Of a DNA stretch of 64,000 nucleotides, positions 36,264-57,165 are shown piece after piece (position 1 is the stretch's first letter; every line of letters begins with the position of its first letter). This DNA is from an uncultured Roseicyclus sp. GTDB taxonomy: Bacteria; Pseudomonadota; Alphaproteobacteria; Rhodobacterales; Rhodobacteraceae. A program made the position numbers and the translations under genes. The notes beneath the pieces are model-generated. The model did not search any database. It saw only the letters and a list, made by a program, of their open reading frames with translations, and had not been told where the DNA came from. The stretch spans positions 59,959 through 123,958 of the forward strand of contig CAKZPN010000006.1 in the NCBI GenBank assembly GCA_937139335.1. The letters run 5' to 3'.

Positions 36264-36291
36264 CTTTGTCCTCGCTTTTCAGAACGAATAG

Positions 36292-36309
36292 GACAATGTG
36301 GTAATTGTC
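36292..36309. promoter_or_regulatory. 6-6-6 inverted repeat in the MocR/operon divergent region
   Basis: GACAAT-gtggta-ATTGTC. A third ATTGTCC copy sits at 36452-36458. Other inverted repeats are at 36379-36389 (ATTGttgCAAT) and 36399-36412 (AATCCattcGGATT). Confidence 0.3.
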
Positions 36310-36497
36310 GCAATCCCCCAGGTGGAAAAAGTGCACCGACAGGAGGTTGAGCGGCAATCCGTCAGCGTGGCTGCCAGAATTGTTGCAATGCAGCATGAAA
36401 TCCATTCGGATTAAACCACAAAAACTGTAACTTTACGTTTGACCCGGCTGGATTGTCCTCTTACCCTTTTCGAAACGGAGAGGATCGGGGGGAGTCG

Positions 36498-36818
36498 ATG
36501 ATCTACGAAATGCGTGTCTACGAGCATGTGGAGGGCCGGGCCGACCAGGTCCGCGAGCGTTTCGAGGCCGAGGTTGCGCCAAGGCTCCCGAACCACGGGG
36601 TCGAGTTGCTCGGCGTGTTCACGGACGCGGAAACCGGCATGCTGACCTACCTCACCCGCTTCGAGAGCGAAGAGGCCCGCGATGCGGCCTGGGCGTCCTT
36701 CGGGGCGGACGAGGGGTGGAAATCGGCCAAGGCCGCGTCGGAGGTCGACGGGCCGCTGATCGCCCGGCAGCACAAGACGGTGCTGAAACCGGCGATGCGC
36801 GGACTGCCGATTTCCTGA
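36498..36818 (+). CDS. NIPSNAP family protein
   Basis: ATG at 36498 (GGGGGGAG upstream). MIYEMRVYE...VELLGVFT.E.G.L..L..F.S...R...W, typical of NIPSNAP. Confidence 0.8.
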   Translation: MIYEMRVYEHVEGRADQVRERFEAEVAPRLPNHGVELLGVFTDAETGMLTYLTRFESEEARDAAWASFGADEGWKSAKAASEVDGPLIARQHKTVLKPAMRGLPIS

Positions 36819-36848
36819 CTGCACGACCATCAAGGGAGGGAAGCGCGC

Positions 36849-37721
36849 GTGAAGGCCGCTCCATTCGACTATCTTCGACCCGGATCGGTGGGTGAGGCCT
36901 GCGAGGCGCTGGCCGCCGACATGGAGGCGCGCGTGCTTGCGGGCGGCCAGACGCTGGTGCCGATGCTGGCCATGCGCCTGTCGCGGCCGTCGCGGCTGGT
37001 CGACATCACCCGGCTTGAGGAACTGTCGCGGATCGACCGGGTCGAGGACGGCGTTGCCATCGGCGCTGCTGTGCGCCAGTGCATCGCCCTTCGGTCTGAT
37101 ATTATCGCGTCGGATGTGCCACTTCTGGCCGCCGCGCTGCCCCATGTCGGGCACCCGCCGACGCGGGCACGCGGCACGGTGGGCGGGTCGATCGCACATG
37201 GCGATCCCTCGGCCGAGATCGCGCTGGCCGCCACGATCCTCGATGCCCGCATCATGTTCCTTGCCGACGGTGAGGAGGAGGAATTTTCGCCCGAGGAGTT
37301 CTTCATCGGCCCGACTGTGACAATGGCCCCGTTGGGCGGGCTTTTGACCCGGGTGGTGTTCCCGAGCCGCCCATCCGGTCGCGTCGGGGCGGCCTTTCAC
37401 GAGATCGCGTCGCGGCGCAGCGACTACGCCTTCGCCTCGACCGGGGCGCAGGTGGTGCTCGACGGCGACGGAACCTGCACCGATGCGCTGCTGGGCGTGG
37501 GCAGCGTCGGCGACACGCCGGTCGCGCTGGACGTGAGCGCCCTGGCCGGCACCCGACTGGGCGAGGAGGACATTCGCGGCGCGGTCGAGGCGGCGCTGGA
37601 GGATCTCGATTGCGTCGACGACCTGCACGCCACCGCAACCTATCGCCGCCGTGCCGCGGCCCAGCTTGCCGCGCAGAGCCTGCGCAATGCCCGCGACCGC
37701 GCGGTGGAGGAGACCGCATGA
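36849..37721 (+). CDS. molybdenum hydroxylase FAD-binding (medium, CoxM-like) subunit
   Basis: GTG start with GGGAGGGA upstream. FDYLRP, LAGGQTLVPML and RARGTVGGSIAHGDP blocks of the FAD_binding_5/CO_deh_flav_C family. Confidence 0.9.
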   Translation: MKAAPFDYLRPGSVGEACEALAADMEARVLAGGQTLVPMLAMRLSRPSRLVDITRLEELSRIDRVEDGVAIGAAVRQCIALRSDIIASDVPLLAAALPHVGHPPTRARGTVGGSIAHGDPSAEIALAATILDARIMFLADGEEEEFSPEEFFIGPTVTMAPLGGLLTRVVFPSRPSGRVGAAFHEIASRRSDYAFASTGAQVVLDGDGTCTDALLGVGSVGDTPVALDVSALAGTRLGEEDIRGAVEAALEDLDCVDDLHATATYRRRAAAQLAAQSLRNARDRAVEETA

Positions 37722-38215
37722 AGACCGAACTGACCATCAACGGCCGATCCCGCGCAATCGACGTGGAGCCTCGCATGACCCTGCTCGACGCTCTGCGCGA
37801 CGCGGCCGGTCTGAAAGGCACCCACGCCGGATGCGAGCACGGTGTCTGCGGCGCCTGCACGGTCATCGTGGACGGGGATGCGGTGCGATCCTGCCTGATG
37901 TTCGCGGTGCAATGCGACGGCATGGAGATCACCACGATCGAGGGTGTTGCCGCCGACCCCGGCGAACTCGACGTGGTGCAGGACAGCTTTTGCGAGACCC
38001 ACGGGCTGCAATGCGGGTATTGCACGCCGGGGATGGTGCTGGCGGCCAAGGCGCTCCTAGCGGTGGAGAAAGACCCGAGCGACGAGCAGATCCGCGACGC
38101 GATCTCCGGCAACATCTGCCGCTGCACCGGCTACGGCCAGATCGTGGAGGCGATCCGGCTGGCCGCAAAACGCCTGCGCGAAAGCAACACGGCAGCGATG
38201 GAGGCGGGCGAATGA
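37718..38215 (+). CDS. molybdenum hydroxylase (2Fe-2S) small (CoxS-like) subunit
   Basis: ATGA overlap with the preceding gene. GCEHGVCGACTV and QCGYCTPG...NICRCTGY cluster motifs. Confidence 0.95.
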   Translation: MKTELTINGRSRAIDVEPRMTLLDALRDAAGLKGTHAGCEHGVCGACTVIVDGDAVRSCLMFAVQCDGMEITTIEGVAADPGELDVVQDSFCETHGLQCGYCTPGMVLAAKALLAVEKDPSDEQIRDAISGNICRCTGYGQIVEAIRLAAKRLRESNTAAMEAGE

Positions 38216-40614
38216 GCGGACCCGCCAAGCTGTTCCAAGGCAAGTATGTCTCGACCGACCGCCGCGTCCGCGAGGATCCGCGCTTCGTCGCGGGCCATGG
38301 CCGCTTCGTGCAGGACATCGACCGTCCCGGCATGCTTCATGTCGCGCTCGTGGCGGCCCAGGCGCCGGCCGCGCGGATCGTGAAGATCGACCCTTCCGCC
38401 GCCTTGGCGATGGAGGGCGTGGTCGACGTGATCGACGGGGCGGAGCTGTCCGCCGCGGTGAACCCGCTGATGAACGGGCTCGACACGCCCAAGGTGCAGC
38501 GGTTTCCGCTCGCAGTGGGGCAGAACCGCTATGCCGGCGAATGGGTCGCCGCCGTGGTGGCCGAGACCCGCGCGCTGGCCGAGGATGCGGCCGAGAAGGT
38601 CCGGGTCGAAACCGAGAAGCTCGGCTTTGTCATCGACGCCGAACAGGCGCTGGAGGAGGGGGCGACGCCGGTCCACCCCGAACACGGCTCGAACCTGCTG
38701 CTCGACCGCACCTTCGACTGGGGTCCGGTGGACGAGGATTTCGCCCGCAGCGACGACAGCCTCAAGCTGCGCGTGACCTGGGGCCGCAACTCGACCGTGC
38801 CCATCGAGACCTTCGGCGTGATCTGCGAATGGAACGCCTGGGAAAAGGTGCTCGACGTCTGGGCCTCGATCCAGATGCCGAAATACGCCGACCAGATCGC
38901 CCGCGCCCTGAAGCTGCACGGCAACGAGGTGCGGGTGCATTACGACGTCGACGTCGGCGGCTCATACGGGGTGAAACGCGGGATCAAGCAGACGGTGCTG
39001 GCCGGCTACCTTGCGCGCAAGCTTGGCCGCCCGGTGCGGCTGATCGAAGACCGGCTGGAAAACATGCGCTCGGGCGACGCCCATGGCCCCGAGCGGATCT
39101 TCGACATCGAGGTCGCCTTTGACCGCGACGGCACGGTGAACGCGATGCGGATGCGCGCGCTGGACAATGCCGGCGCCTATGCCGGCCGCGCGCCGTTCCA
39201 GCTCGGCAAGCCCATCGGCGCGATCGTCGGACCCTACCGCATCAACTCGGTGCAATACCGTGCGATGTCGGTGACGACGAACAAGGCGGTGCAGGAGGCG
39301 GTGCGCGGCTTTGGCCAGGCGCCGACGAATTACGCCATCGAGACCATGATGGACCGCGTGGCCGATCACCTCGGCATCGACCGGCTGGACCTGCGCCAGA
39401 AGAACCTGATCCGGCCCGATGAATTTCCCTACGAGATCCCGTCGGGCAGCAAGTACGATTCCGGCGACTACCAGGCCGTCATCGCGAAGGTTCTGGAGCA
39501 GGGCGACTACGACGGCATGAGGGCCGAGCGCGACCGGCTGCGCGCCGAGGGGATGTGCGCGGGCATCGGCGTCGCTGCCTGCCTCGAGCCCTCGGGCGGA
39601 AATTCGTCCTTCGAGCCGCTGCTGAACCCCGCCAACCGCACCTCCACCTGGATGGAGGGGAGCCGCGTGAACATCGACGCGCTGGGTGACGTGACCGTGG
39701 CGATCCACACCACGAGCTCGGGGCAGGGGCACGAGACGCTGGCCGCGACCGTGGTGGGCGAGGTTCTGGGTGTCGATCCCGACCGCGTGCGCGTGGTGCG
39801 GCCCGACAGCCTCGGCTCGCTGCCCGGCAACTCGCCGGTCGGCAGCCGCATGGCGATCATGCTGGGGGGCGCGGCGGCCAATGCTGCGCGCGACATCATC
39901 CGCCAGGCCATCGCCATCGGGGCGCACCTGATGGATGCCGACCCCGGTGATTGTTCCTACGACAGCGGCACCGTGATCGGGCCGGGCGGCGCGGAGATCG
40001 CCTGGACCGAGATCGTGGATGTCGCCCACCGCCGCTTCCACGACCTGCCCAAGGGCACAAACCCCGGGCTGACCGCCAGCTTCATTCAGCAGGTCCCGAC
40101 CGGCGAAACCCTGCCGAAGGACGGCAAGGCGCAGATGTATCCGTGCTATTCCTTCGAATTCCACCTCGTGCTGGTGGCCTTCGCCCCGGTTCTCGCCAAG
40201 CCCGAGCTGCGCCGCTATGTCATCGGGCACGACTGCGGCACTGTCATCAACCCGCACATCGTGAAGGGCATGACGCTCGGCGGTATCGCCCATGGCATCG
40301 GCGCGACGCTGCTGGAGGAATTCGCCTATGACGGCGAGGGGCAGCTGATGACGCAAAGCTTCCTCGACTACCTCATGCCGTCGAGCCACGAGGTGCCCGA
40401 GGTGCAGATCGTGAAGCACTGCACACCCTCGCCGCTGACCGAGTTCGGCCAGAAGGGATCGGGCGAAAGCGGCTATCTTGGCTCGCCCGCCGCGATCTCC
40501 GGCGCCATCCACGACGCGCTCAAGCCCTGGGGCATCCACCTGAACAAGCTGCCGATCCGCATGGCCGCGATCAGCGACGCGATCGCGGCGGCGGAAGAGA
40601 AAGGACACCCATGA
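38212..40614 (+). CDS. xanthine dehydrogenase/CoxL-family molybdopterin-binding large subunit (not form I CO dehydrogenase)
   Basis: ATG at 38212 (ATGA overlap); 800 aa. RGFGQAPTNYAIE and GSGESGYLGSPAAISGAIHDAL blocks are present. I found neither the VAYRCSFR nor the AYRGAGR active-site loop. It has a GGSYGVKRG motif where GGGFGGK is usual. Confidence 0.9.
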   Translation: MSGPAKLFQGKYVSTDRRVREDPRFVAGHGRFVQDIDRPGMLHVALVAAQAPAARIVKIDPSAALAMEGVVDVIDGAELSAAVNPLMNGLDTPKVQRFPLAVGQNRYAGEWVAAVVAETRALAEDAAEKVRVETEKLGFVIDAEQALEEGATPVHPEHGSNLLLDRTFDWGPVDEDFARSDDSLKLRVTWGRNSTVPIETFGVICEWNAWEKVLDVWASIQMPKYADQIARALKLHGNEVRVHYDVDVGGSYGVKRGIKQTVLAGYLARKLGRPVRLIEDRLENMRSGDAHGPERIFDIEVAFDRDGTVNAMRMRALDNAGAYAGRAPFQLGKPIGAIVGPYRINSVQYRAMSVTTNKAVQEAVRGFGQAPTNYAIETMMDRVADHLGIDRLDLRQKNLIRPDEFPYEIPSGSKYDSGDYQAVIAKVLEQGDYDGMRAERDRLRAEGMCAGIGVAACLEPSGGNSSFEPLLNPANRTSTWMEGSRVNIDALGDVTVAIHTTSSGQGHETLAATVVGEVLGVDPDRVRVVRPDSLGSLPGNSPVGSRMAIMLGGAAANAARDIIRQAIAIGAHLMDADPGDCSYDSGTVIGPGGAEIAWTEIVDVAHRRFHDLPKGTNPGLTASFIQQVPTGETLPKDGKAQMYPCYSFEFHLVLVAFAPVLAKPELRRYVIGHDCGTVINPHIVKGMTLGGIAHGIGATLLEEFAYDGEGQLMTQSFLDYLMPSSHEVPEVQIVKHCTPSPLTEFGQKGSGESGYLGSPAAISGAIHDALKPWGIHLNKLPIRMAAISDAIAAAEEKGHP

Positions 40615-41591
40615 TCATCGACGCCCACGCCCACCTCGTCCCGCCCTCGCTGCTCGAGGAATTGCAGGACCGCGCGACCGATTTTCCCGCCGTCGCGATC
40701 GCGCCCAAGGACGGGTCGGTGACATTCTCCTTTGCCGGCAAGAAGGCGACGCGGCCGGTGTCGCCCGGCCTCACCAACCTCGACAAGCGCATCGCCTGGA
40801 TGGATGCTCAGGGGATCGACCGGCAGGTGGTGGCAGGCTGGCTCGACATGTTCGGCAACGACCTGCCCGCCGCGGAAGGCGCGGAATGGGCGCGGACGAT
40901 CAACCGACACTTGAAGCAGGCCGAGGCCGACAGCGGAGGGCGCTTTGCGGGCCTTGCCGTGCTGCCGACGCAGGATGGCGAGCTGGCCGCGCAGGTGCTG
41001 CGCGAGGCGCATGAGGCGGGGTTTTCCGGCACCATGATCGGCACCCAGCCCGACAACGGCGGCGGCGAGCTGGACAACCCGGCGCTCGACCCGTTCTGGC
41101 AGGCGGCGCACGAGCTGGGTTCCATCGTCGCGATCCACCCGGTCTTCGACGCGGGCGACGCGCGGGTGCGCGACTGGGGCATGCCCAACGCACTCGGCCG
41201 GATCACCGACAGCCTGATCGCGGTGACGCGGATCATCTACTCGGGCCATGTCGAGAAATATTCCAACGCGAAGATCGTGGTCGGCATCGGCGGCGCGGCC
41301 TTGCCCTACGTGATTGGCCGACTGGCCCATAATCACAAGCTGCACCCAGAAGACATGGCCGACCCGGTCAAGGCGATGTCGATGCTCTACTATGATACGC
41401 TGCTGCATGACCCGAAGGCGCTGCAACTGCTGATCGACACGGTGGGCGCGGACCGGATCATGCTGGGCTCGGACATGCCGTTCCCGATCTGCGATCCGAC
41501 GCCGCTGGCCATTCTCGATGGCGTGAACCTGTCCGAAGCGGACCGGGCCAGCATCGAGCACGGCCTGGCCGAACGGCTGATGCGCGGGTGA
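40611..41591 (+). CDS. amidohydrolase_2 (ACMSD/LigW-like) family protein
   Basis: ATGA overlap with the large subunit. MIIDAHAHLVP (HxH metal motif) and a C-terminal GSDMPFP block. Confidence 0.9.
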   Translation: MIIDAHAHLVPPSLLEELQDRATDFPAVAIAPKDGSVTFSFAGKKATRPVSPGLTNLDKRIAWMDAQGIDRQVVAGWLDMFGNDLPAAEGAEWARTINRHLKQAEADSGGRFAGLAVLPTQDGELAAQVLREAHEAGFSGTMIGTQPDNGGGELDNPALDPFWQAAHELGSIVAIHPVFDAGDARVRDWGMPNALGRITDSLIAVTRIIYSGHVEKYSNAKIVVGIGGAALPYVIGRLAHNHKLHPEDMADPVKAMSMLYYDTLLHDPKALQLLIDTVGADRIMLGSDMPFPICDPTPLAILDGVNLSEADRASIEHGLAERLMRG

Positions 41592-41604
41592 TGGAGGGCA
41601 CGCG

Positions 41605-42066
41605 ATGAAGATGGAGCTTTCCGGCACCGAGGAGATCAACGCCACCCCGCAGGCGCTGTGGGATGGGCTGACCGACCCCGACGTGCTGCAAAAATGCATC
41701 CCCGGCTGCAAGGAGATGACGGCAACCGGTCCCGATGCCTACGACATGAAGCTGCAACTGAAGGTCGCGGCCGTCGGCGGCTCCTTCGACGGCAAGGTGC
41801 GGCTGCACGACAAATCCGAACCCGACACCTGCCACATCGAGGTGTCGGGCGGTGGCTCGCTCGGCACCGGCGAGGGCCGGGCGCAGTTCGCCATCGCCGA
41901 CGCCGGCGCGGGCAAATCGACGCTCAGCTACGAGGGCGAGGGCGAGATCGGCGGGCTGGTCGCGGGTGTCGGGCAGCGGGTGCTGAAATCGGTCGCCAAG
42001 CATCTGACAAAACAGTTCTTCACGGCGCTGCGAAAGCACTTCGAGGAGCACGACGCGACAGCCTGA
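41605..42066 (+). CDS. coxG: CoxG-like SRPBCC protein
   Basis: 153 aa with the pattern GTEEINATPQALWDGLTDPDVLQKCIPGC...G.G.IGG..A.VGQR, characteristic of CoxG. Confidence 0.85.
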   Translation: MKMELSGTEEINATPQALWDGLTDPDVLQKCIPGCKEMTATGPDAYDMKLQLKVAAVGGSFDGKVRLHDKSEPDTCHIEVSGGGSLGTGEGRAQFAIADAGAGKSTLSYEGEGEIGGLVAGVGQRVLKSVAKHLTKQFFTALRKHFEEHDATA

Positions 42067-42105
42067 CGGGCAATCTTCAAGACGCCGATGGGAGGAGAGG
42101 CGCTG

Positions 42106-42909
42106 ATGATGGTAGACACGCACAGGATCACGACCGGGGCCGGGCATGGCCTCTGCATCTCGCGGCGCGAGGGTGCGGGCCTGCCGGTGCTGTTCCTGAA
42201 TTCCTTTGCCGCCGATCACACCATGTGGGACGCGGTGCGCGCCCGCATGGGGCGGACGACAATTGCCTATGATGCGCGCGGCCACGGCGCCTCGGACGTC
42301 GCGGGCCATGACCTGACGGTTGCGGATCTGGCCGCCGACGCGAAGGCGGTGATCGCGGCGGAAGGTCTGCGCGACGTGGTGCTGTGCGGCCTGTCGCTGG
42401 GCGGTCTCACGGCGATGGCGCTGGCCGCCGACCCCTCGGTTTCCGTCAGGGGGCTGGTGCTCGCGAACACAGCGGTGAATTTCCCCCCCGCCTCGATGTG
42501 GCAGGACCGCGCGAAGACCGTCCTGTCGGGCGGCTATTCCGGCCTGATCGAGCCGACGCTGGAGCGCTGGCTGACCGAGGGCTGGCGTGCGTCGCATCCC
42601 GAGGAGCTGGCCCGCGCGCGCGCTATGCTGGAGTCCATGCCGCCGCAAGGCTACGCCGACGCTTGCGCCGCACTGGCCAGCGCCGACACCTCGGCCGAGC
42701 TTGCGGGTTGGGCTGGCCCGACGCTGATCATCGCGGGGGCGCATGACGCCTCCTCCCCCGTCGCGCGGGCCGAGGAGATGCGGGGCATCGCGCAGGACGC
42801 GCGGCTGGTGGTGCTGGACGCGGCCCATGTCTCGGCCATCGAGGCGCCGGAGGCATTCGCTCACGCGTTGGAGGGCTTCGTGGCAGAGCTGGAGGCCACC
42901 CATGCCTGA
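42106..42909 (+). CDS. alpha/beta hydrolase (3-oxoadipate enol-lactonase-like)
   Basis: ATG at 42106 with GGAGGAGAGG upstream (alternative ATG at 42088). GLSLGG nucleophile elbow and a C-terminal DAAHVS histidine region. Confidence 0.85.
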   Translation: MMVDTHRITTGAGHGLCISRREGAGLPVLFLNSFAADHTMWDAVRARMGRTTIAYDARGHGASDVAGHDLTVADLAADAKAVIAAEGLRDVVLCGLSLGGLTAMALAADPSVSVRGLVLANTAVNFPPASMWQDRAKTVLSGGYSGLIEPTLERWLTEGWRASHPEELARARAMLESMPPQGYADACAALASADTSAELAGWAGPTLIIAGAHDASSPVARAEEMRGIAQDARLVVLDAAHVSAIEAPEAFAHALEGFVAELEATHA

Positions 42910-43504
42910 TCCGCGCCGCGTCATCATCGGGATCACCGGGGCGTCCGGGACGCTTCTGGGCATCCGCCTGCTCGAACTGTTGCGCGACGTGCCGGATGTC
43001 GAGACGCATCTGGTGATGTCGCCCGCCGCCGTGCGGACCATGCTGATCGAGACCGACTACACCGCCGACGCCGTCAACGCGATGGCCGACGTCACGCACA
43101 GCTTCAAGGACATCGGCGCCTCGATCGCCTCGGGCAGCTTCAAGTCCGAGGGCATGATCATCGCGCCCTGCTCGGTGAAGACGCTGGGCGCCATCGCCGG
43201 CTGCCTGACCGACGACCTGATCTCGCGCGCCGCCGATGTCTGCCTGAAGGAACGCCGCCGTGTGGTGCTGATGTTCCGCGAGACGCCGCTGCATGCGGGC
43301 CATATCCGCGTAATGAAAGAGGCGACCGAGGCGGGCGCGATCGTGATGCCGGCGGTGGTCGGCCTCTACTACCAGCCGAAATCGGTGCTGGAGATGGTCG
43401 ATCACCTGGCCGGCCGCGCGCTCGACCTGATCGGCATCGACGCGGGAACCGTGAAGCGCTGGCAGGGCCAGCCTGGAAAAGCCGACGAGGGAGACACAAG
43501 ATGA
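42902..43504 (+). CDS. ubiX: flavin prenyltransferase UbiX (prFMN synthase)
   Basis: In-frame ATG at 42902, an 8-nt overlap with the hydrolase gene. IIGITGASG...ETHLVMS...SGSF...IAPCS.KTL..IA......L..RAADV.LKERR..VL..RETPLH matches E. coli UbiX throughout. Confidence 0.95.
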   Translation: MPDPRRVIIGITGASGTLLGIRLLELLRDVPDVETHLVMSPAAVRTMLIETDYTADAVNAMADVTHSFKDIGASIASGSFKSEGMIIAPCSVKTLGAIAGCLTDDLISRAADVCLKERRRVVLMFRETPLHAGHIRVMKEATEAGAIVMPAVVGLYYQPKSVLEMVDHLAGRALDLIGIDAGTVKRWQGQPGKADEGDTR

Positions 43505-45153: not shown

Positions 45154-45193
45154 AAGGCACATTAACGGTTTACGAAGCTGCCACAGCAATGTT

Positions 45194-45216
45194 CGTATGG
45201 AGCCATACGGTATGGC
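45194..45216. promoter_or_regulatory. interlocked GTATGG/CCATAC/GTATGG repeats (candidate operator or internal promoter element)
   Basis: cGTATGG-ag-CCATAC-g-GTATGGc forms two overlapping 7-bp inverted repeats. It sits in the 83-nt AT-rich gap between ubiD and the Rieske gene. Confidence 0.3.
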
Positions 45217-45236
45217 ATCAGACGAAAGGAAACGCC

Positions 45237-45602
45237 ATGGAAGAGATACGCATTTGCGGACGTGACGAGATACCCGACGGCGGTGCGCGCATCGTCGAGA
45301 TCGGGCGGCTCGAGATCGGGGTGATCCGGCACAAGGATACCTTTTACGCCTATCGCAACCTCTGCCCGCACCAGGGCGGCCCGGCCTGCGAAGGCGTGCG
45401 CATGGCAGGCGTGGTCGACCTCGTTGAAGCCGACGGCAGCTACCACGGCCAGCAGTTCGACGAAGGCGACATGCACATCGTCTGCCCGTGGCACGGCTAC
45501 GAGTATCACCTCGAGACCGGGGTGAACGTCTGCGACGCGAAGCTGAAGCTGCGCAAGTTCGAGGTGAAGGAGAAGGGGGGCGACATCTATGTCTGCATCT
45601 GA
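45237..45602 (+). CDS. small Rieske (2Fe-2S) domain protein
   Basis: ATG at 45237 (AAAGGAAA upstream); 121 aa. CPH ... CPWH ligand pairs are separated by 37 residues. Confidence 0.85.
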   Translation: MEEIRICGRDEIPDGGARIVEIGRLEIGVIRHKDTFYAYRNLCPHQGGPACEGVRMAGVVDLVEADGSYHGQQFDEGDMHIVCPWHGYEYHLETGVNVCDAKLKLRKFEVKEKGGDIYVCI

Positions 45603-45939
45603 CCCCGCCACCGGCTTTGCCGAGACCGCCAGCACCCTGTCCGCGCTGATCGACGATGCCATCGCCGAGGGCGCCATCGACCGGCTCGATGACGAGGCGC
45701 TGGGTCAGGCGTTGGCCGCCGCCGTCCGGCTCTACGTCGCCAAGGCCGAAACCGGCGCGCGGCTGATGCCGTTCGGTCGCAACAGTGCCGTCACCGCGAC
45801 CGAGATCGCGGTGGCCGCCATGGCGATGCTCGACGCCGGCCGCATGGAGATCTTCGAGTTGGGCCTGTGGGAGCAGTGGAGCAACATCCGCCCCGCCCGC
45901 CAGACCTCGCTTTCCGACCTGCAGGAGGTGCCCGCATGA
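45589..45939 (+). CDS. hypothetical 116-aa acidic Ala-rich protein, no recognisable domain
   Basis: High GC3. It overlaps the Rieske gene by 14 nt, and its stop overlaps the next start (ATGA at 45936-45939). The position argues for a real, translationally coupled gene. Confidence 0.55.
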   Translation: MSASDPATGFAETASTLSALIDDAIAEGAIDRLDDEALGQALAAAVRLYVAKAETGARLMPFGRNSAVTATEIAVAAMAMLDAGRMEIFELGLWEQWSNIRPARQTSLSDLQEVPA

Positions 45940-47189: not shown

Positions 47190-47205
47190 CTGGCCCCGGC
47201 CGACG

Positions 47206-47223
47206 CCTGCCGGTCGCGGCAGG
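47206..47223 (+). other. intercistronic stem-loop upstream of tctC
   Basis: CCTGCCG-gtcg-CGGCAGG (7-bp stem), 17 nt after the amidohydrolase stop. No U-tract. Confidence 0.3.
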
Positions 47224-47324
47224 ACAGGAATTCAAGGGGGCGCCAAGACCCCCGCGACGACAGCGGACAGACCGGCAGGAGGGCCGGGACATCCGCTGAA
47301 ATGCAACAGAGGAGGAAGAACACC

Positions 47325-48302
47325 ATGCAACTCAAGGATTTCCTGACAGGCGCGGCCGCCTTGGCCGGGCTGGCGATCGTGGCGGCGACCCCCGCTGCGG
47401 CGCAGGATGACTACCCCAGCCAACCGCTGCAGATCATCGTGCCCTTCGGGCAGGGTGGCGCGACGGACCAGCTGTCGCGCATGTTCGCGCCGGCGCTGGA
47501 GGATCGGCTGGGCACGCCCATCGTCATCATCAACCAGCCGGGCGCCGGCGGGGCCGTGGGCCTCGCGAACCTCGCGCTGCTCGAGCCCGATGGCTACACG
47601 ATCGGCGTCGGGTCGGATTCGACCCTTGCCGCGCGTCCGCTGATGGACAGCTCCGGCTACACCCCCGAAAGCTTCGACACGGTGGTGCGGCTCGTCGACA
47701 TCCCCTCCGGCATCGCCGTGCGGGCCGACAGCCCCTACGAGACTCTGGACGACCTCGTGACGGCGCTGCAGTCGGGCGAGAGGCTGAACTGGTCGGGCTC
47801 CGGCATCGGCTCCGGTCCGCACCTGGCCATGGCGGTTTTCCTGGCCCAGAACGACCTGACCGCGACCTACGTCAACTCCAACTCCGGCCAGGAAGCGATG
47901 GTGAAGCTCCTGTCGGGCGAGGTCGACTTCTTCTCGGGCGGCGGGTCGAACTACCCGCCGATGATCGACGACGACGGCTCCAGCGACATCCGCGTGCTCG
48001 CGCTGGCCGCCGAGGAGCGGTGGCAGTACCTGCCCGACGTGCCGACCTTCACAGAGGCGGGCTACCCCTACCTGCGGTCGCAGTGGTTCGGCTTCGTCGG
48101 CCCGGCCGGGATGCCGCAGGAGGCGATCGACGCGATCACCGAAGCGGTGCGGGAAACGCTCGAAGCGCCCGAGTTCCAGGACCGGCTCGACCAGTTCTAC
48201 TTCAACCCGGCCTTCCAGACTTCGGAAGAGATGCGGGCGCAGATCGCCGAGGAGCAGGAAAGCTTCCTGCCGATCCTGCAGGAAGCCGGTCTCGCCGAAT
48301 AA
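47325..48302 (+). CDS. tctC: TctC/Bug family periplasmic solute-binding protein
   Basis: ATG at 47325 with GGAGGA 9 nt upstream. Signal peptide ...ATPAAAQ, then PLQIIVPFGQGGATDQLSR and INQPGAGG blocks. Confidence 0.9.
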   Translation: MQLKDFLTGAAALAGLAIVAATPAAAQDDYPSQPLQIIVPFGQGGATDQLSRMFAPALEDRLGTPIVIINQPGAGGAVGLANLALLEPDGYTIGVGSDSTLAARPLMDSSGYTPESFDTVVRLVDIPSGIAVRADSPYETLDDLVTALQSGERLNWSGSGIGSGPHLAMAVFLAQNDLTATYVNSNSGQEAMVKLLSGEVDFFSGGGSNYPPMIDDDGSSDIRVLALAAEERWQYLPDVPTFTEAGYPYLRSQWFGFVGPAGMPQEAIDAITEAVRETLEAPEFQDRLDQFYFNPAFQTSEEMRAQIAEEQESFLPILQEAGLAE

Positions 48303-48331
48303 CCCGGCACTCTGACCGCAAGATTGCCCGT

Positions 48332-48349
48332 CCGCCCCTGTCGGGGCGG
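48332..48349 (+). other. intercistronic stem-loop downstream of tctC
   Basis: CCGCCCC-tgtc-GGGGCGG (7-bp stem, extendable imperfectly), 30 nt after the tctC stop. No U-tract. Confidence 0.3.
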
Positions 48350-48405
48350 GCGCGGCACCACAACCGCGCCCCACGGCGGGCGCACGGATCGGGAGGATCC
48401 CAGAC

Positions 48406-48846
48406 ATGGCTCTGAAGCATGAGGACACGGTTGCGGGAGCCGGGCTGAGCGCGGTCGGCGCGGCCTTCGTGTGGTTCTCGCTCGACATCGGCACCGGCGC
48501 GCGCGGCGCAACGCTGCCGCCCAACTTCTTCCCGCTGCTCTGCGCGGGCGGCCTCATCCTGTGCGGCGTTGTCCTGCTGATCCGCGGCCTGAGGTCCGAG
48601 GCCGGGCCGCTGCCACAGGTTCTGGACCTGCGGATCGCCGTCGTCGGCGGGCTGCTCTTCGTGTTCTACTGGTTCTTCCGCGATCTCGATTTCCGCGCCG
48701 GCGCCTTCGTCCTGACCCTGGTCACGATGCTGATGTTCGGCATCCGCTCGATCCCGCAACTCGTCATTCTGCCGCTGGTGCTGGCCTTCGGGCTCTACTT
48801 CGCCTTCACCCGCGGCTTCAGCCTGGTGCTCCCGACATGGATATGA
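48406..48846 (+). CDS. tctB: TctB small membrane subunit
   Basis: 146 aa with four hydrophobic segments, lying between tctC and tctA. It overlaps tctA by 10 nt. Confidence 0.8.
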   Translation: MALKHEDTVAGAGLSAVGAAFVWFSLDIGTGARGATLPPNFFPLLCAGGLILCGVVLLIRGLRSEAGPLPQVLDLRIAVVGGLLFVFYWFFRDLDFRAGAFVLTLVTMLMFGIRSIPQLVILPLVLAFGLYFAFTRGFSLVLPTWI

Positions 48847-50375
48847 TCGCCGACCTTGCCGCGGGCGCCGCGGCCATCGCCGACCCTTGGGTCATTCTTT
48901 TCGTCTTCCTCGGGGCCGTCATCGGCATGGTCTTCGGGGCCGCGCCCGGGCTGACCGCCACCTCGGCCATCGTGCTGTTCCTGCCGGTGACCTACGCCAT
49001 GGGCCCGACGACCTCGATGGCGCTGCTGCTGGGGATCTATTGTTCGGGCTATTTCGCCGGATCCATTCCCGCGATCTTGCTGAACACGCCCGGCGCGCCG
49101 GGTTCGGCGGCGACGGCGCTGGACGGCTACGCCATGGCGCAACAGGGCTACGGCGACCGCGCGATCCTGACGGCGGTGATGTCGTCCTTCGTGGGCGGGC
49201 TGTTCTCGCTGTTGCTGCTGGCGCTGATCGCGCCGTCCCTGGCCCGCGTCGCGCTGAGCTTCACTTCGGTCGAATACTTCACCTTCGCGCTGGTCGGCAT
49301 CGTCTGCGTCGCGGGCATCTCGCGCGGCTCGATGATCAAGGGGCTGGCGGCGGCCTTCATCGGGGTTCTTGCCTCCACCGTGGGCCTCGACCCGGTGTCG
49401 GGCGTCGGCCGTTTCCTTTTCGGGCAGCCGAACCTGATGGGAGGCATCCCGACCACCGCCGCGCTGATCGGCCTTTTCGCGGTGGCGCAGATGATGCTGC
49501 TGACCGCCAAGGGACGCCAGGAGGCCGAGGTGCTGCCGGTGCAGCAGACCACGTCGGTGGCCGAAGTCCTGAAGGATTTCACGCGCAACAAGTTCCTGAT
49601 GCTGAAATCCGCCGTGGTGGGCGCGCTCATCGGCATCCTGCCCGGCACCGGGCCGTCGATCGCGTCCTGGGTCAGCTATTCCGACGCTCTGCGCACGGCC
49701 AAGCCGGGCGACAGGTACGGCAAGGGCGAGCCGAAGGGTCTGATCGCCTGCGAAGTGTCCAACAATGCCGTCACCGGCGGCGCGCTGGTGCCGTTGCTGA
49801 CGCTCGGCATTCCGGGCGACCCGGTGACGGCGGTGCTCATCGGCGCACTGATGATCCAGGGCTTCGAGACCGGCCCCTTCTTCATCCCGCACAACACGCC
49901 GCTGTTCTACTCGATCCTGATCCTGCTCCTGATCTCGAATTTCCTGATGCTAGGCATCGGCATCGCTGGCCGCCGGCTGGCGGCCAAGGTTCTTGAGATC
50001 CCGCATGGCATCATGGTGCCGACGATCCTGTGCGTGGCCGGGGCGGGCGCCTTTTCGCTGGCGTCCAACCCGTTCTACCTCAAGCTCGTCATCATCTTCG
50101 GTGCGATGGGCTACTTGATGGTGCGCTTCAAGATCCCTACCGCCCCGGCGGTCCTCGGCATCGTCCTCGGCCCGATCCTGGAACAGAACCTGCGCAACGC
50201 GCTCACCGCGAACGACATGGACGCGACGGTGTTCGTGACCCGGCCGATCAGCGCGGTGACGCTGGCCTTCATGTGCCTGCTGCTGTGGGTCTGGCTGAAA
50301 CCCGCCAAGAAGTCCGACGATAGCGGGGACGGCGGCGGTTCGGGCACACCGTCGGATGCGGAGTTGAAGGGATGA
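48837..50375 (+). CDS. tctA: TctA large membrane subunit
   Basis: In-frame ATG at 48837 (MDMIADL...) inside ORF 48471..50375. GAAPGLTATSAIVLFLP and TLGIPGDPVTAVL blocks. Confidence 0.9.
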   Translation: MDMIADLAAGAAAIADPWVILFVFLGAVIGMVFGAAPGLTATSAIVLFLPVTYAMGPTTSMALLLGIYCSGYFAGSIPAILLNTPGAPGSAATALDGYAMAQQGYGDRAILTAVMSSFVGGLFSLLLLALIAPSLARVALSFTSVEYFTFALVGIVCVAGISRGSMIKGLAAAFIGVLASTVGLDPVSGVGRFLFGQPNLMGGIPTTAALIGLFAVAQMMLLTAKGRQEAEVLPVQQTTSVAEVLKDFTRNKFLMLKSAVVGALIGILPGTGPSIASWVSYSDALRTAKPGDRYGKGEPKGLIACEVSNNAVTGGALVPLLTLGIPGDPVTAVLIGALMIQGFETGPFFIPHNTPLFYSILILLLISNFLMLGIGIAGRRLAAKVLEIPHGIMVPTILCVAGAGAFSLASNPFYLKLVIIFGAMGYLMVRFKIPTAPAVLGIVLGPILEQNLRNALTANDMDATVFVTRPISAVTLAFMCLLLWVWLKPAKKSDDSGDGGGSGTPSDAELKG

Positions 50376-52126
50376 CCGAAGCCATGACCGGGCATCGGCT
50401 GCGCAACGTCGACGGACCCCGTAGCGCCGCGCACCACCTGCTGCAGGCGCTGTGCGATGTGGGCATCGACTATGTCTTCGCCAACCTCGGCACCGACCAC
50501 GCGCCCATCATCGAGGAGATGGCGCGCTGGCGGGCCGAGGGGCGGGAGGGGCCGAGGGTGCTGCTCTGCCCGCACGAATCCACTGCCGCGCACATGGCGA
50601 TGGGCTATGCCGTCGCCACCGGGCGGGGGCAGGGCGTGCTGGTGCACGTGGACGTGGGCACCACCAACGCCGCCACGGCAATGCACAACGCCTGCCGCTC
50701 GCGCCTGCCCGTCTTGCTGATGGCGGGCAAGGCGCCCTACACGAGCCACGGCGAGCTGCCCGGCACGCGCGACAACTACGTGCATTTCATCCAGGAGCCG
50801 CAGGACCAGGGCTCGGTCGTGCGGCCCTACGTGAAATGGGAATACACTTTGCAATCCGCCGTCCATGTCGGCGAAGTGCTGCGCCGCGCGCATACGGTGA
50901 TGCAGTCGGGCGCGCGCGGGCCGGTCTACCTGATGCTGCCGCGCGAGGCGCTGACGGGGCAGGCGGATGGCGCAGAGCTTCCGGTCTTTCCGGCGTCCAA
51001 GCATGGCGAGATGGTGCCGGGCGGCCTGCCCGACGCGCCGCTGCGCGATCTCGCCCGGCGCCTGCTGGAGGCCGAAAGGCCGCTCATCATCGCTTCCTAC
51101 GCCGGGCACACTCCGGGAACTTCTGAGGCGATCGAGCGCCTGTCCGAGCTGGTGGGCGCGGCGGTGGTGCAGAACGCGATGGTGTCGAACATCAACCACG
51201 AGATGCCGTGCTTTGCGGGCGGGCTGCCCGGCGAGCGGCTGCCAGACGCCGATGTGGGGCTGATCGTGGACAGCGACGTGCCGTGGATCCCGTCGGCCGG
51301 CCGGCCCGACCCAAGCGCGTTCTGGGCACATGTGGATGTCGACGCGCTGAAAACCGGGTCGCCGATCTGGTCCTTCCCCGCCGACCTGCGGCTGGAGGGC
51401 AGCAGCGCGCAGATCGTCGGGCGGCTGGCCGAACTGGTCGAGGAGATGCGGAGCGCGGACCAGGCGGAGCGCGCGGCTGCGCGCGTGGCCGAGCTGTCCG
51501 CGGCGGGCGACAAGCGCCGCGCCTCGGCCGCCGAGGCGGCGGCAGACCCGGGCGCGCCCGACGCGCTGAACCCGCACCACGTGCTGCGCGCGCTGGGGCA
51601 GGCGCTGCGCTCCGAGGACGTGATCTTTCACGAGGCGGTGCGCAACCAGCCGGTGATGGTCCGCCAGATCCCGCGCTCGCTGCCCGGCACCATGACCCGC
51701 ACAGCGGGCGGCGGGCTGGGCGCCTCGGGCGGCATGGCGCTGGGCTACAAGTTGGCGCGCCCCGACCGGCTGGTGGTGCAGATCGTCGGTGATGGCGCGT
51801 TCTACTACAACAACCCGGCCTCGATGCTGGCGGTGTCCCGGCAATACGACCTGCCGACGCTGACGGTGGTGCTGGACAACGCCGGCTGGTCGGCGGTGAA
51901 GGAAAGCACGCTGCGCTGCTACCCCGACGGGGCGGCGAAGGCAGACGGCGATTTCGCCTCGGATTTCCGCAGCGACACCGATTACGCTGCCATCGCCGCG
52001 ATGTTCGGGTTCGAGGGCGTCACCCTGCGCGACCCCGACACGGTCGCGGAACAGGTGAACCGCGCGGTCGACACCGTGCGCGGCGGAAAATCGGTGGTGA
52101 TGCACGTCCGGCTGCCCCGGCACTAG
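50372..52126 (+). CDS. thiamine diphosphate-dependent enzyme (acetolactate synthase-like superfamily)
   Basis: ATGA overlap with tctA; 584 aa. N-terminal PYR domain (GIDYVFANLGTDH...CPHESTAAHMAMGYA) and a C-terminal GDGAFYYNNP ThDP/Mg motif. Confidence 0.9.
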   Translation: MTEAMTGHRLRNVDGPRSAAHHLLQALCDVGIDYVFANLGTDHAPIIEEMARWRAEGREGPRVLLCPHESTAAHMAMGYAVATGRGQGVLVHVDVGTTNAATAMHNACRSRLPVLLMAGKAPYTSHGELPGTRDNYVHFIQEPQDQGSVVRPYVKWEYTLQSAVHVGEVLRRAHTVMQSGARGPVYLMLPREALTGQADGAELPVFPASKHGEMVPGGLPDAPLRDLARRLLEAERPLIIASYAGHTPGTSEAIERLSELVGAAVVQNAMVSNINHEMPCFAGGLPGERLPDADVGLIVDSDVPWIPSAGRPDPSAFWAHVDVDALKTGSPIWSFPADLRLEGSSAQIVGRLAELVEEMRSADQAERAAARVAELSAAGDKRRASAAEAAADPGAPDALNPHHVLRALGQALRSEDVIFHEAVRNQPVMVRQIPRSLPGTMTRTAGGGLGASGGMALGYKLARPDRLVVQIVGDGAFYYNNPASMLAVSRQYDLPTLTVVLDNAGWSAVKESTLRCYPDGAAKADGDFASDFRSDTDYAAIAAMFGFEGVTLRDPDTVAEQVNRAVDTVRGGKSVVMHVRLPRH

Positions 52127-52614
52127 GGCGCGGCGATTGCCTCCATCCGGGCGACGAGCGCGTCGATGAGGTCGTCCGCCAGCGGCGCGGGCAATGTCGT
52201 GCCATAGGCGGCGAGGGTTTCGCGCGCGGCCTCGGCCGGTGCCACGCCGTCACGCCCCGGCAGCGTCGCCGCCTCCAGTGTTTTCAGCTGCACCTTCTCG
52301 GCCGACAGTTCCACCTTCTTCACCTGGCTGCGGAACCCTTCCTGCGCCGCCGCGTCGGGGTTCAGCGCCTCGGTCTTCAGCTTGCGGCGCAGCGCGCGGA
52401 GCGGGCGGACGACTTCCTCCCGCCATGGGGCGACGGCGGCATCCAGCGCACGGATCGCGTCGGCCTCGGTAACGCGGCCGCGCGCCGCGTGCCACAGCAG
52501 GCAGAGCGCCACCGGCACGTCGCCGCCAAATTCGTCTTGCAGGCGCAGGCAGTGCTCTTGCGTTTCCGCGTCGTCGTAGAACCGCAGGGCAAAGGACCAC
52601 AGGTCGTCATCCAT
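52123..52614 (-). CDS. TIGR02444/DUF2390 family protein
   Basis: Start at 52614 or 52620 (MAMDDDLWSFALRFYDD...CLRLQDEFGGDVPVALCLLW). It overlaps the GntR stop by 8-14 nt, and its stop shares CTAG with the convergent ThDP gene. Confidence 0.7.
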   Translation of the reverse strand: MDDDLWSFALRFYDDAETQEHCLRLQDEFGGDVPVALCLLWHAARGRVTEADAIRALDAAVAPWREEVVRPLRALRRKLKTEALNPDAAAQEGFRSQVKKVELSAEKVQLKTLEAATLPGRDGVAPAEAARETLAAYGTTLPAPLADDLIDALVARMEAIAAP

Positions 52615-56592: not shown

Positions 56593-56687
56593 CGGCGATG
56601 CCGCGCGCCCGCATCCTGCCGGTTGGCACTGCCCCCCGGACCCGTGCTAAGCCATGAGGCGGCACGGGGCGACAGGGTGGGCAGCGC

Positions 56688-57161: not shown

Positions 57162-57165
57162 CGGC

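Follow-up and report, generated by a model that had tools for sequence, protein, structure and literature searches.

Gene content and organization of the operon

The DNA analysed here, referred to as the window, is a stretch of 64,000 nt from an uncultured Roseicyclus sp. (contig CAKZPN010000006.1), and all coordinates are positions within it. It harbours 16 consecutive open reading frames (ORFs) on the + strand, from 36498 to 52126, which form a tightly packed, translationally coupled operon. Together with its neighbours, this operon makes up a cluster of about 21 genes (Table 1), for which a role in the catabolism of a heteroaromatic acid is proposed below. A total of six junctions are ATGA stop/start overlaps (37718, 38212, 40611, 43501, 45936 and 50372), five of them preceded by a GGAG-type Shine-Dalgarno sequence and that at 40611 by AAAGGA. 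Further overlaps were found between the genes of the alpha/beta hydrolase (ABH) and UbiX (8 nt), the Rieske ferredoxin and orf116 (14 nt), and TctB and TctA (10 nt), while the remaining short junctions ranged from +13 to +30 nt. Only three gaps exceeded 40 nt, namely those between UbiD and the Rieske ferredoxin (83 nt, 45154-45236), between the amidohydrolase-related dinuclear oxygenase (ARO) and TctC (135 nt, 47190-47324), and between TctC and TctB (103 nt, 48303-48405). Neither terminator-like hairpins nor Rfam elements were detected in these three gaps, and the same scans found nothing in the operon gaps and leader as a whole.

The G+C content of the window is about 67%. For the same DNA, a publicly available gene call (ENA ERZ650162 NODE_94) gave identical genes save for the start of ABH, for which two ATG codons are possible: 42088, yielding the 273 aa adopted in a preliminary description of this DNA, and 42106, yielding the 267 aa of the public call. 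That description had also reported the 16-gene operon, its six ATGA overlaps, the overlaps of 8, 14 and 10 nt, the three longer gaps and a divergent MocR gene at 36263, all of which were reproduced when ORFs and junctions were re-checked and, for the MocR gene, by Pfam; every one of its domain assignments was likewise recovered with Pfam and NCBIfam. The Pfam annotation spanned from about 33.5 kb to the window end, and the region upstream was gene-called only.

Table 1. Genes of the cluster and adjacent genes in the window, with the matches on which their assignment is based.
Gene product	Position	Strand	Matches and remarks
MocR-type regulator	34890..36263	-	Pfam GntR + Aminotran_1_2; divergent from the operon
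NIPSNAP protein, 106 aa, first operon gene	36498..36818	+	PF07978, 60.8 bits
CoxM-type FAD subunit of Mo-hydroxylase	36849..37721	+	FAD_binding_5 + CO_deh_flav_C
CoxS-type [2Fe-2S] subunit of Mo-hydroxylase	37718..38215	+	Fer2 + Fer2_2; ATGA overlap with CoxM
CoxL-type molybdopterin subunit, not CO dehydrogenase	38212..40614	+	Ald_Xan_dh_C + MoCoBD_1/2
AH2a, ACMSD-like amidohydrolase_2, 326 aa, predicted mononuclear-metal decarboxylase/hydrolase type	40611..41591	+	PF04909
CoxG (SRPBCC)	41605..42066	+	PF06240, 100 bits
ABH, 3-oxoadipate enol-lactonase-related	42088..42909 (start maybe 42106)	+	Abhydrolase_1
UbiX flavin prenyltransferase (makes prenylated FMN, prFMN)	42902..43504	+	Pfam Flavoprotein; NF004685, 249.9 bits, over the 188 cutoff
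UbiD-family prFMN-dependent decarboxylase, 550 aa	43501..45153	+	UbiD_N, UbiD, UbiD_C
Rieske [2Fe-2S] ferredoxin, 121 aa, predicted electron donor to ARO	45237..45602	+	PF00355
orf116, 116-aa helical protein	45589..45939	+	no Pfam/NCBIfam match
ARO, predicted dinuclear oxygenase, 417 aa	45936..47189	+	PF04909; ARO motifs
TctC/Bug periplasmic solute receptor	47325..48302	+	PF03401, 148 bits
TctB small membrane subunit	48406..48846	+	PF07331
TctA large membrane subunit	48837..50375	+	PF01970, 442 bits
ThDP1, thiamine diphosphate (ThDP)-dependent enzyme, 584 aa, distantly benzoylformate-decarboxylase-like	50372..52126	+	NF006203, 610 bits, over the 456 cutoff
DUF2390/TIGR02444 protein	52123..52614	-	PF09523
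GntR/FCD-family regulator	52607..53314	-	GntR + FCD
ThDP2, ThDP-dependent enzyme, 585 aa	53319..55076	-	TPP_enzyme_N + TPP_enzyme_C
NAD(P)-dependent aldehyde dehydrogenase	55165..56592	+	PF00171
TauE-family (sulfite-exporter-type) protein	57166..57957	+	
TauE-family (sulfite-exporter-type) protein	57954..58712	-	

Molybdenum hydroxylase and prFMN-dependent decarboxylase

The large subunit of the Mo-hydroxylase (CoxL, 800 aa) contains neither the AYRCSFR motif of form I nor the AYRGAGR motif of form II CO dehydrogenases, the tripeptide AYR occurring nowhere in its sequence, and the Mo subunit scored far under the cutoffs of the NCBIfam CO dehydrogenase models. The enzyme is not an aerobic CO dehydrogenase of either form; the preliminary description had noted the missing form I loop, to which the missing form II motif can now be added. 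The best PDB matches of CoxL were 8uem (a CoxL structure) and quinoline 2-oxidoreductase (Qor, 1t3q). Moreover, CoxL, CoxM and CoxS showed 35%, 40% and 49% identity to the HmfA, HmfB and HmfC orthologues of the hmf cluster on a Cupriavidus oxalaticus plasmid (locus L095), and 29.8%, 27% and 49% to the L, M and S subunits orthologous to the lumazine enzyme LuDH, the large and FAD subunits being closer to HmfA and HmfB. Because of the missing CO dehydrogenase motifs and the likeness to Qor and HmfA, the enzyme can be read as a heterocycle hydroxylase. CoxG would probably be its quinone-binding electron outlet, in analogy to mycobacterial CoxG, a quinone-extracting protein (PMC12202499).

The UbiD protein comprises three UbiD domains and keeps the catalytic motifs (R176 in NMGTYR; E283 and E288 in EPEGPFGES), and its gene shares an ATGA overlap with that of a UbiX scoring above cutoff, which identifies a UbiD/UbiX system. 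Its best PDB match was HmfF, with low similarity (128 bits), and it belongs to an uncharacterised subfamily.

Two different amidohydrolase_2 proteins

Two amidohydrolase_2 enzymes had been listed in the preliminary description, and PF04909 was indeed found in both proteins, but the 417-aa one carries the marks of an ARO-type oxygenase, so that the operon does not encode two decarboxylases or hydrolases of this family. The two proteins share only 24% identity.

For AH2a, the best PDB match was ACMSD (125 bits), followed by gamma-resorcylate decarboxylase (77 bits), with LigW and LigY at lower scores. Its ligand set (H6-x-H8 ... D287) is that of the mononuclear ACMSD type, and the D-x-P-H-x-D motif is absent. 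Judged from these residues, AH2a is an ACMSD-like protein of the HxH type, not of the type of the picolinate enzyme PicC.

The D-x-P-H-x-D motif is considered ARO-defining and is absent in all characterised PF04909 hydrolases and decarboxylases (PMC13154177). AROs were recognised by a C-terminal D-x-P-H-x-D/E following at least about 200 residues of the PF04909 TIM barrel, and the 417-aa protein has D358-Y-P-H361-W-D363 in this position, together with an N-terminal metal motif, D46-S-H48, that aligned with its equivalent in 8sm7 and SfbO. Its best PDB matches were 8sm7, 8sm9, AibH2 (6m1w), SfbO (8sm6) and PtmU3. Furthermore, a small Rieske ferredoxin with canonical ligands (C43-x-H45 and C83-x-x-H86) is encoded two genes upstream, and its gene co-varied with that of the ARO across the compared loci. 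Given both ARO-defining motifs and the Rieske neighbour, the protein is predicted to be a dinuclear oxygenase rather than a decarboxylase or hydrolase, which implies that the pathway would contain an O2-dependent oxygenase.

The gene between them, orf116, was always located between the Rieske and ARO genes, and the Rieske gene was always accompanied by orf116 and ARO in the compared loci. Relatives of orf116 were found in only 26 clusters among 5.8 billion proteins, with identities of 40-81%; its AlphaFold2 (AF2) model consists of three helices (predicted local distance difference test, pLDDT, 74), and no match was obtained in Pfam, NCBIfam or the fold search with this model. Thus, orf116 is a real but narrowly distributed gene, and the three genes together are predicted to encode an O2-dependent monooxygenase module.

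Hydrolase, transporter, ThDP enzymes and regulators

ABH scored 212.5 bits against TIGR02427 (PcaD), under the 255.85 cutoff, and its best PDB match was the 3-oxoadipate enol-lactonase 2xua. The occurrence of PF03401, PF07331 and PF01970 in consecutive genes identifies a tripartite tricarboxylate transporter (TTT), whose receptor TctC had BugD, Bug27 and terephthalate-binding proteins as nearest structures (100-132 bits). ThDP1 belongs to NF006203, a family with no known function; its PDB matches included BbmA and BFD, both scoring about 93 bits, and cyclohexane-1,2-dione hydrolase, scoring 76 bits. It is 30% identical to ThDP2. In the structure searches of TctC, ABH and the ThDP enzymes, no substrate was indicated. 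The best NCBIfam match of the MocR regulator was EhuR-like (411 bits, under the cutoff of 480), and no equivalog-level NCBIfam name was obtained for AH2a, ARO, ThDP2, the aldehyde dehydrogenase or the GntR regulator.

Conservation and modularity of the cluster

Relatives of the window UbiD were scanned in one genome per species and found in at least 578 genomes. A total of 20 window proteins were compared with the loci of the best 80 of these relatives, complemented by Pfam-annotated look-ups (loci are numbered with the prefix L). These best 80 were 71-90% identical to the window UbiD and came mostly from Alpha- and Betaproteobacteria, SAR116 included, with a few Gammaproteobacteria. The full order, MocR / NIPSNAP-CoxMSL-AH2a-CoxG-ABH-UbiX-UbiD-Rieske-orf116-ARO-TctCBA-ThDP1 / DUF2390-GntR-ThDP2 / aldehyde dehydrogenase, recurred in five other lineages of Rhodobacterales/Hyphomicrobiales (Rhodobacterales HKCCE2091, Oricola, Roseitranquillus, Arsenicitalea and Vannielia). 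In particular, the MocR gene kept its position in L005-L008, L010, L093, L094 and L099, NIPSNAP was also the first gene in L005-L008, L093, L094, L099 and L100, and the GntR/FCD regulator was kept in L005-L008, L093, L094 and L099, while ThDP2 was kept at 74-80% identity in L005-L008. Moreover, the aldehyde dehydrogenase gene follows ThDP1 directly and on the same strand in Arsenicitalea and Agaricicola, and DUF2390 was present in 20 of the 80 loci. By this conservation, the system runs beyond 52126, DUF2390, GntR-FCD, ThDP2 and the aldehyde dehydrogenase being its conserved companions.

Shorter arrangements were also found. The compared Roseicyclus locus has the core and DUF2390-GntR-ThDP2, and at that position neither the Rieske-orf116-ARO trio, TctCBA orthologues nor ThDP1, while Salipiger has the core with TctCBA and DUF2390, without the trio or either ThDP enzyme. 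In Propylenella and Agaricicola, UbiD is linked to the trio and TctCBA with no AH2a or ABH nearby, and in L079 and L081 orf116 and the Rieske gene lie immediately upstream of CoxM. In about 30 of the 80 loci, CoxMSL-AH2a-UbiD, with AH2a after CoxL, stood alone in several orientations, and its usual neighbour was a Bug receptor or an NMT1-type ABC transporter. Thus, the trio is an accessory insert, and ThDP1 and the TTT genes vary between lineages. Taken together, the comparison supports one co-oriented but modular system that is conserved in several bacteria of sea and soil, and in which an accessory oxygenase insert and a conserved downstream block are joined to the core. The single system suggested in the preliminary description stands insofar as the full order recurs in five lineages; it is, nevertheless, modular and larger than had been stated.

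This modularity could alternatively mean that two or more functionally separate units adjoin each other, the core from NIPSNAP to UbiD having been joined by an independently acquired ARO/TTT/ThDP module for another compound. Such a division would agree with the Roseicyclus, Salipiger, Propylenella and Agaricicola loci, and with the three gaps of more than 80 nt, which coincide with the limits between modules or lie close to them (UbiD/Rieske, ARO/TctC and TctC/TctB). However, in every place examined the trio had this UbiD subfamily or its Mo-hydroxylase as a neighbour, including the position directly upstream of CoxM in L079 and L081; the gaps contain no terminator-like site, and the insert lies inside a conserved UbiD...DUF2390 frame in six lineages. 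Separate units are consequently regarded as unlikely, and it is more likely that the ARO module widens the substrate range of one pathway.

A UbiD paralogue of 55% identity was observed on megaplasmids of Neorhizobium petrolearium (L087) and Sinorhizobium meliloti LMB1 (L088), and also on pNGR234b of S. fredii NGR234. It lies in a supercluster comprising CoxMS-CoxG-CoxL, a second, different CoxL, GntR, UbiX, DUF2390, TctC, a ThDP enzyme and TctA, in which an ABC solute-binding protein is inserted between CoxG and CoxL and AH2a is missing; its ThDP enzyme is a 37% homologue of ThDP2 and its regulator a 37-39% homologue of the GntR/FCD protein. Since these clusters hold them, the association of UbiD/UbiX, Mo-hydroxylase, DUF2390, GntR, ThDP enzyme and TTT recurs at greater evolutionary distance, and the supercluster probably encodes a sister pathway that acts on a related substrate. 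The paralogue is absent from S. meliloti 1021, and therefore the published fitness and transport data of that strain could not be used.

DUF2390 was seen to adjoin UbiD/UbiX genes of four UbiD subfamilies (the window and L087, L088, L090 and L097), namely those of the window, of the 55% paralogue, of a lumazine-type Variovorax cluster and of a Pseudohalocynthiibacter plasmid that carries a relative with 29% identity. In one metagenome-assembled genome (MAG), the neighbour of DUF2390 was an ABC-F ATPase instead. Its AF2 model is all-helical and of very high confidence (pLDDT 95.5), and the fold search gave no PDB match. DUF2390 may be an accessory factor of prFMN enzymes. As regards NIPSNAP, a 213-aa double-NIPSNAP protein accompanies the CoxMSL-AH2a/UbiD core in three betaproteobacterial MAGs (L021, L041 and L050), where a second, longer AH2a-like gene also occurs; because of this, NIPSNAP proteins may be a regular component of the system rather than a chance first gene.

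Among the remaining observations, one 21-kb locus (L075) contained three UbiD-family paralogues along with CocE-type and DUF1100-type hydrolases and an acyl-CoA dehydrogenase. The two TauE-family genes of the window lie tail to tail, and the order aldehyde dehydrogenase-MarR-TauE (55165-58712) is syntenic with Agaricicola (L092). Positions 1-33000 of the window are, according to the gene calls, a patchwork of LysR-type regulators, aldo-keto reductases, short-chain dehydrogenases/reductases and transporters with no obvious link to the cluster and with a third-position G+C somewhat below that of the operon.

Proposed pathway

The reading that we prefer, with a probability of about 0.55, is that the cluster of about 21 genes encodes a modular catabolic pathway by which a heteroaromatic carboxylic acid would be imported and degraded; a di- or tricarboxylate of the pyridine, furan or pyrrole type is the most likely candidate. 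Enzyme families, motifs, coupling and co-conservation were observed as described above, and the following sequence of reactions, kind of substrate and mode of ring opening are proposed. The acid would be taken up by TctCBA and hydroxylated next to the ring heteroatom by the CoxMSL enzyme, with a hydroxyl derived from water and the electrons leaving via CoxG. In lineages with the insert, the ARO, its Rieske ferredoxin and the 116-aa helper could add a second, O2-derived hydroxyl on a ring or side-chain C-H, or alternatively the ARO could catalyse side-chain hydroxylation or dealkylation. Two mechanistically different decarboxylations, para or ortho to the new hydroxyls, would be carried out by UbiD, with prFMN from UbiX, and by the metal-dependent ACMSD-like AH2a. 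The PcaD-like hydrolase might open an enol-lactone or lactam tautomer, for which no ring-cleaving dioxygenase would be needed. Finally, the ThDP enzyme or enzymes would decarboxylate a 2-oxo-acid product, the aldehyde dehydrogenase would oxidise the resulting aldehyde, and expression would be controlled by the MocR and GntR/FCD regulators. The logic of a Mo-hydroxylase combined with UbiD/UbiX acting on heteroaromatic acids has precedent in two systems that have been solved experimentally, the hmf cluster and, in PMC12391406, lumazine cluster I.

Two routes would fit all the parts. In the first, a pyridine dicarboxylate would be converted through a di- or trihydroxypyridine to 2-oxoglutaramate. 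In the second, a furan or pyrrole (di)carboxylate would be converted through a 5-hydroxy-2-carboxylate, whose 5-oxo-4,5-dihydro tautomer would be a close analogue of 3-oxoadipate enol-lactone, to 2-oxoglutarate or 2-oxoglutaramate. On present evidence, neither of them is preferred. A more specific version, put forward with considerable doubt, joins several proposals: an undescribed and widespread route for a common heteroaromatic carboxylate, in which the Mo-hydroxylase and the ARO are redox-coupled via the Rieske protein, the ring is opened hydrolytically or by a ThDP enzyme rather than a dioxygenase, and DUF2390 is an accessory factor of prFMN/UbiD. The electrons of the water-dependent first hydroxylation would in that case pay for the second one by the O2-dependent Mn/Fe ARO, and this coupling would explain the absence of a reductase gene.

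The preliminary description had proposed an undescribed route for a heteroaromatic or aromatic polycarboxylate with hydrolytic ring opening. The conserved system and the literature search, in which no characterised orthologous cluster was found, agree with this, while hydrolytic ring opening and the substrate class are retained here as proposals. Its statement that the operon encodes no CoA ligase, ring-cleaving dioxygenase or enoyl-CoA hydratase was confirmed by Pfam.

Several points weigh against the proposed heteroaromatic pathway. MocR-type regulators usually sense an amine, not a carboxylate. The proposed route gives no reason for two ThDP enzymes, the cluster encodes no reductase that could serve the Rieske/ARO pair, and the 16 genes are not an indivisible unit, given the absence of the ARO trio and ThDP genes in Salipiger and of the trio, TTT and ThDP1 in Roseicyclus. 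Furthermore, hydroxylation by known AROs takes place at aliphatic C-H bonds and not on aromatic rings (PMC10811679, PMC10401708), and the literature search found no close or characterised orthologous cluster with an experimentally defined substrate. Finally, the same UbiD orthologue (72-75% identical) was also found in contexts without any Mo-hydroxylase, and in nine of the 80 loci it was paired (73-74%) with 3-hydroxybenzoate 6-monooxygenase (3HB6H), hinting at a benzenoid product.

The last point bears on the possibility that the compound degraded is benzenoid (phenolic), either a polycarboxylate or a carboxy-aldehyde; hydroxy-iso/terephthalates and lignin-derived compounds of the 5-carboxyvanillate type would be examples. 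The Mo enzyme would then be an aromatic aldehyde oxidoreductase, UbiD and AH2a would decarboxylate hydroxyarylic acids, and the ARO would act as a demethylase or methyl hydroxylase. Such a substrate would be consistent not only with the 3HB6H loci but also with the FAH-family hydrolases in several loci, the LigW/LigY matches of AH2a, the score of about 104 bits of TctC to terephthalate-binding proteins, the scores of the Mo subunits against archaeal aldehyde dehydrogenase models, and the action of known AROs on aliphatic C-H or N-alkyl groups. On the other hand, the closest relatives of the Mo enzyme are the heterocycle hydroxylases Qor, KdhL and HmfA, the operon contains no ring-cleaving dioxygenase, and the 3HB6H gene is convergent, occurs in one context only and does so without Mo genes. 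Moreover, enzymes typically seen in the breakdown of N-heterocycles, namely amidases, flavin monooxygenases and an isochorismatase-like hydrolase, are encoded in other loci of the same UbiD orthologue and suggest nitrogen compounds; a TAXI-TRAP transporter was a further neighbour in such contexts. A benzenoid substrate is hence considered improbable, and only a small chance is assigned to possibilities beyond those listed in this work.

In the nine 3HB6H loci, of which L040 and L053 are examples, UbiD is preceded by a Bug receptor and by an amidohydrolase_2 of 286 aa that resembles LigI, the convergent 3HB6H gene (NF006021, 491 bits, over the 459 cutoff) follows it, and the housekeeping genes tgt, queA and coaD lie on the other side.

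The heteroaromatic pathway proposed here would unite four demanding cofactor systems in one unit: molybdenum cofactor, prFMN, ThDP and a predicted dinuclear Mn/Fe or Fe2 centre. The UbiD subfamily is widespread, with relatives in at least 578 species genomes, among them those of SAR116 and of soil Hyphomicrobiales. Were the substrate defined, thousands of genes would gain a function, and a flux of carbon or nitrogen in sea water and soil would come to light. The reactions of very few AROs are known, and a defined catabolic operon makes the native substrate of this one experimentally reachable. In addition, a route with no CoA activation or classical ring-cleaving dioxygenase would be attractive for biocatalysis, where heteroaromatics are to be hydroxylated, carboxylated or decarboxylated.

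Comparison with known systems

In the literature search, no paper was found describing the cluster, its UbiD subfamily, orf116 or DUF2390, and no close orthologues in the same arrangement with a defined substrate, which would have contradicted the novelty put forward in the preliminary description, were encountered. Nor was a description found in the searchable literature of an ARO in a Mo-hydroxylase/UbiD catabolic operon. Compared with AibH1H2/AibG and SfbO/SfbR, AROs with Rieske ferredoxin partners studied by the Rittle laboratory, the window ARO likewise has the PF04909 fold, D-x-H and D-x-P-H-x-D. Its gamma-4 aromatic residue and adjacent small Rieske ferredoxin match the published pattern of the low-potential, Mn-using AROs. 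However, it is only distantly related to characterised AROs (140 bits to 8sm7) and differs from them by about 40 extra N-terminal residues, the conserved 116-aa helical protein encoded between ferredoxin and oxygenase, and the lack of a nearby reductase gene.

The partial analogues named in the preliminary description included hmf, which does encode a CoA ligase and an enoyl-CoA hydratase, but not the cluster with the closest published logic, the pterin/lumazine cluster I of Cupriavidus sp. LA-1 (Doi, Maeda and Takaya 2025, PMC12391406). There, lumazine is converted via 6,7-dihydroxylumazine and xanthine-8-carboxylate to xanthine by LuDH, a three-subunit Mo-dehydrogenase, DHLI, an amidohydrolase_2 isomerase whose alpha/beta pair needs a CobW-like GTPase, and XCDC, a UbiD/UbiX decarboxylase (PMC12391406). 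Both clusters thus combine a Mo-dehydrogenase, amidohydrolase_2 and UbiD/UbiX with a GntR-type regulator, and have neither a ring-cleaving dioxygenase nor CoA chemistry; in Variovorax, a DUF2390 gene lies beside the lumazine-type cluster, as it does near UbiD in the window.

The comparison was made against the proteins of a complete orthologue of LA-1 cluster I on pSymB of S. meliloti (L096, CP130053.1 1556606-1581715). This locus encodes two amidohydrolase_2 proteins (308 and 313 aa, one with and one without His-x-His), a 457-aa UbiD, UbiX, an NCS2 permease, a CobW-type GTPase, the xanthine dehydrogenase (XDH)-type L, S and M subunits, GntR and a CDA-like deaminase. Its 457-aa XCDC orthologue shared 27.8% identity over 392 aa with the 550-aa window UbiD, and the DHLI subunits had no detectable pairwise similarity to AH2a, the only such protein in the window core. 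The motif of the CobW GTPase (GxLGxGKTT...CxCC), validated on the pSymB GTPase, was found neither in the window nor in the 91 compared loci, and the genes annotated with Pfam, which cover the window from about 33.5 kb onwards, include no deaminase (pterin/cytosine-type) or nucleobase permease. That the window holds an orthologue of lumazine cluster I is therefore exceedingly unlikely and refuted as regards orthology, since the true orthologue has the expected gene set with proteins far from those of the window (UbiD 27.8%, L/M 30%/27%), even though the trio of families including a three-subunit enzyme of the xanthine oxidoreductase (XOR) family is the same, His6 and His8 of AH2a are as in the catalytic DHLI subunit, and the LA-1 cluster has been reported in Rhodobacterales and Rhizobiales (PMC12391406). 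The window cluster lacks the alpha/beta amidohydrolase_2 pair, CobW-type GTPase, deaminase and NCS2 permease, and additionally has a TTT, CoxG, NIPSNAP, a PcaD-like hydrolase, ARO/Rieske, two ThDP enzymes and an aldehyde dehydrogenase.

Plasmid matches of about 30% identity were also tried and rejected as XCDC orthologues. Those of Paracoccus kondratievae and Ensifer adhaerens proved to be the UbiD/UbiX of a UbiU/V/T-type ubiquinone locus, and the one of Cupriavidus oxalaticus carries hmf instead.

The hmf cluster, which serves the degradation of the furans furoate and FDCA, resembles the window operon in uniting UbiD/UbiX (HmfF/HmfG, 29%/48% identity), a Bug/TctC receptor and a three-subunit Mo-dehydrogenase (the furoyl-CoA dehydrogenase HmfABC), the latter being the closest relative of the window Mo enzyme among those compared. 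The identities to HmfFG and HmfABC are too low to indicate orthology, yet high enough that a related substrate is conceivable. In contrast, hmf has no AH2a, ARO/Rieske, ThDP enzymes, CoxG or PcaD-like hydrolase, and it encodes the furoyl-CoA synthetase HmfD and the 2-oxoglutaroyl-CoA hydrolase HmfE of the enoyl-CoA hydratase family, whereas no AMP-binding or enoyl-CoA hydratase (ECH) domain was detected by Pfam in the operon or its flanks. Because a furoyl-CoA synthetase and an enoyl-CoA hydratase-type hydrolase are absent, the chemistry of the window cluster cannot go via a CoA thioester.

The picolinate (pic) pathway of Alcaligenes faecalis JQ135 (PicA, PicB, PicC and PicD-G) resembles the proposed route in its sequence of reactions: Mo-dependent hydroxylation next to the ring nitrogen, O2-dependent hydroxylation by a Rieske-containing multicomponent oxygenase, decarboxylation by an amidohydrolase_2 enzyme and an alpha/beta hydrolase step (10.1101/530550, 10.1101/457895). 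It was rejected as an orthologue: PicB is a classical Rieske ring-hydroxylating oxygenase while the window enzyme is a predicted ARO, and PicC is of the EEH-motif gamma-resorcylate-decarboxylase type while AH2a has the HxH of the ACMSD type. Missing from the window are the 2,5-dihydroxypyridine dioxygenase, the maleamate amidase and the maleate isomerase of pic, no ring-cleaving dioxygenase domain having been detected by Pfam in the operon, and pic has no UbiD/UbiX or ThDP enzymes. The earlier view that the operon matches neither hmf nor picolinate clusters holds, since the lumazine cluster is no orthologue either.

Two further models were discarded. The DipD-dependent route of the dipicolinate (dip) cluster needs no molybdenum cofactor and uses the GntR/FadR regulator DipR, and the ThDP heterocycle decarboxylase LumK/LumL of the riboflavin/lumichrome pathway is made up of two proteins, each of about 20 kDa, in contrast to the 584-aa enzymes of the window.

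Overall, the window cluster appears, from its gene content and protein similarities, to work like the hmf, lumazine and pic systems while being orthologous to none of them. The catabolism of heteroaromatic acids by a Mo-hydroxylase and UbiD/UbiX is already known, and the predicted ARO monooxygenase module and the ThDP enzymes are the notable additions.

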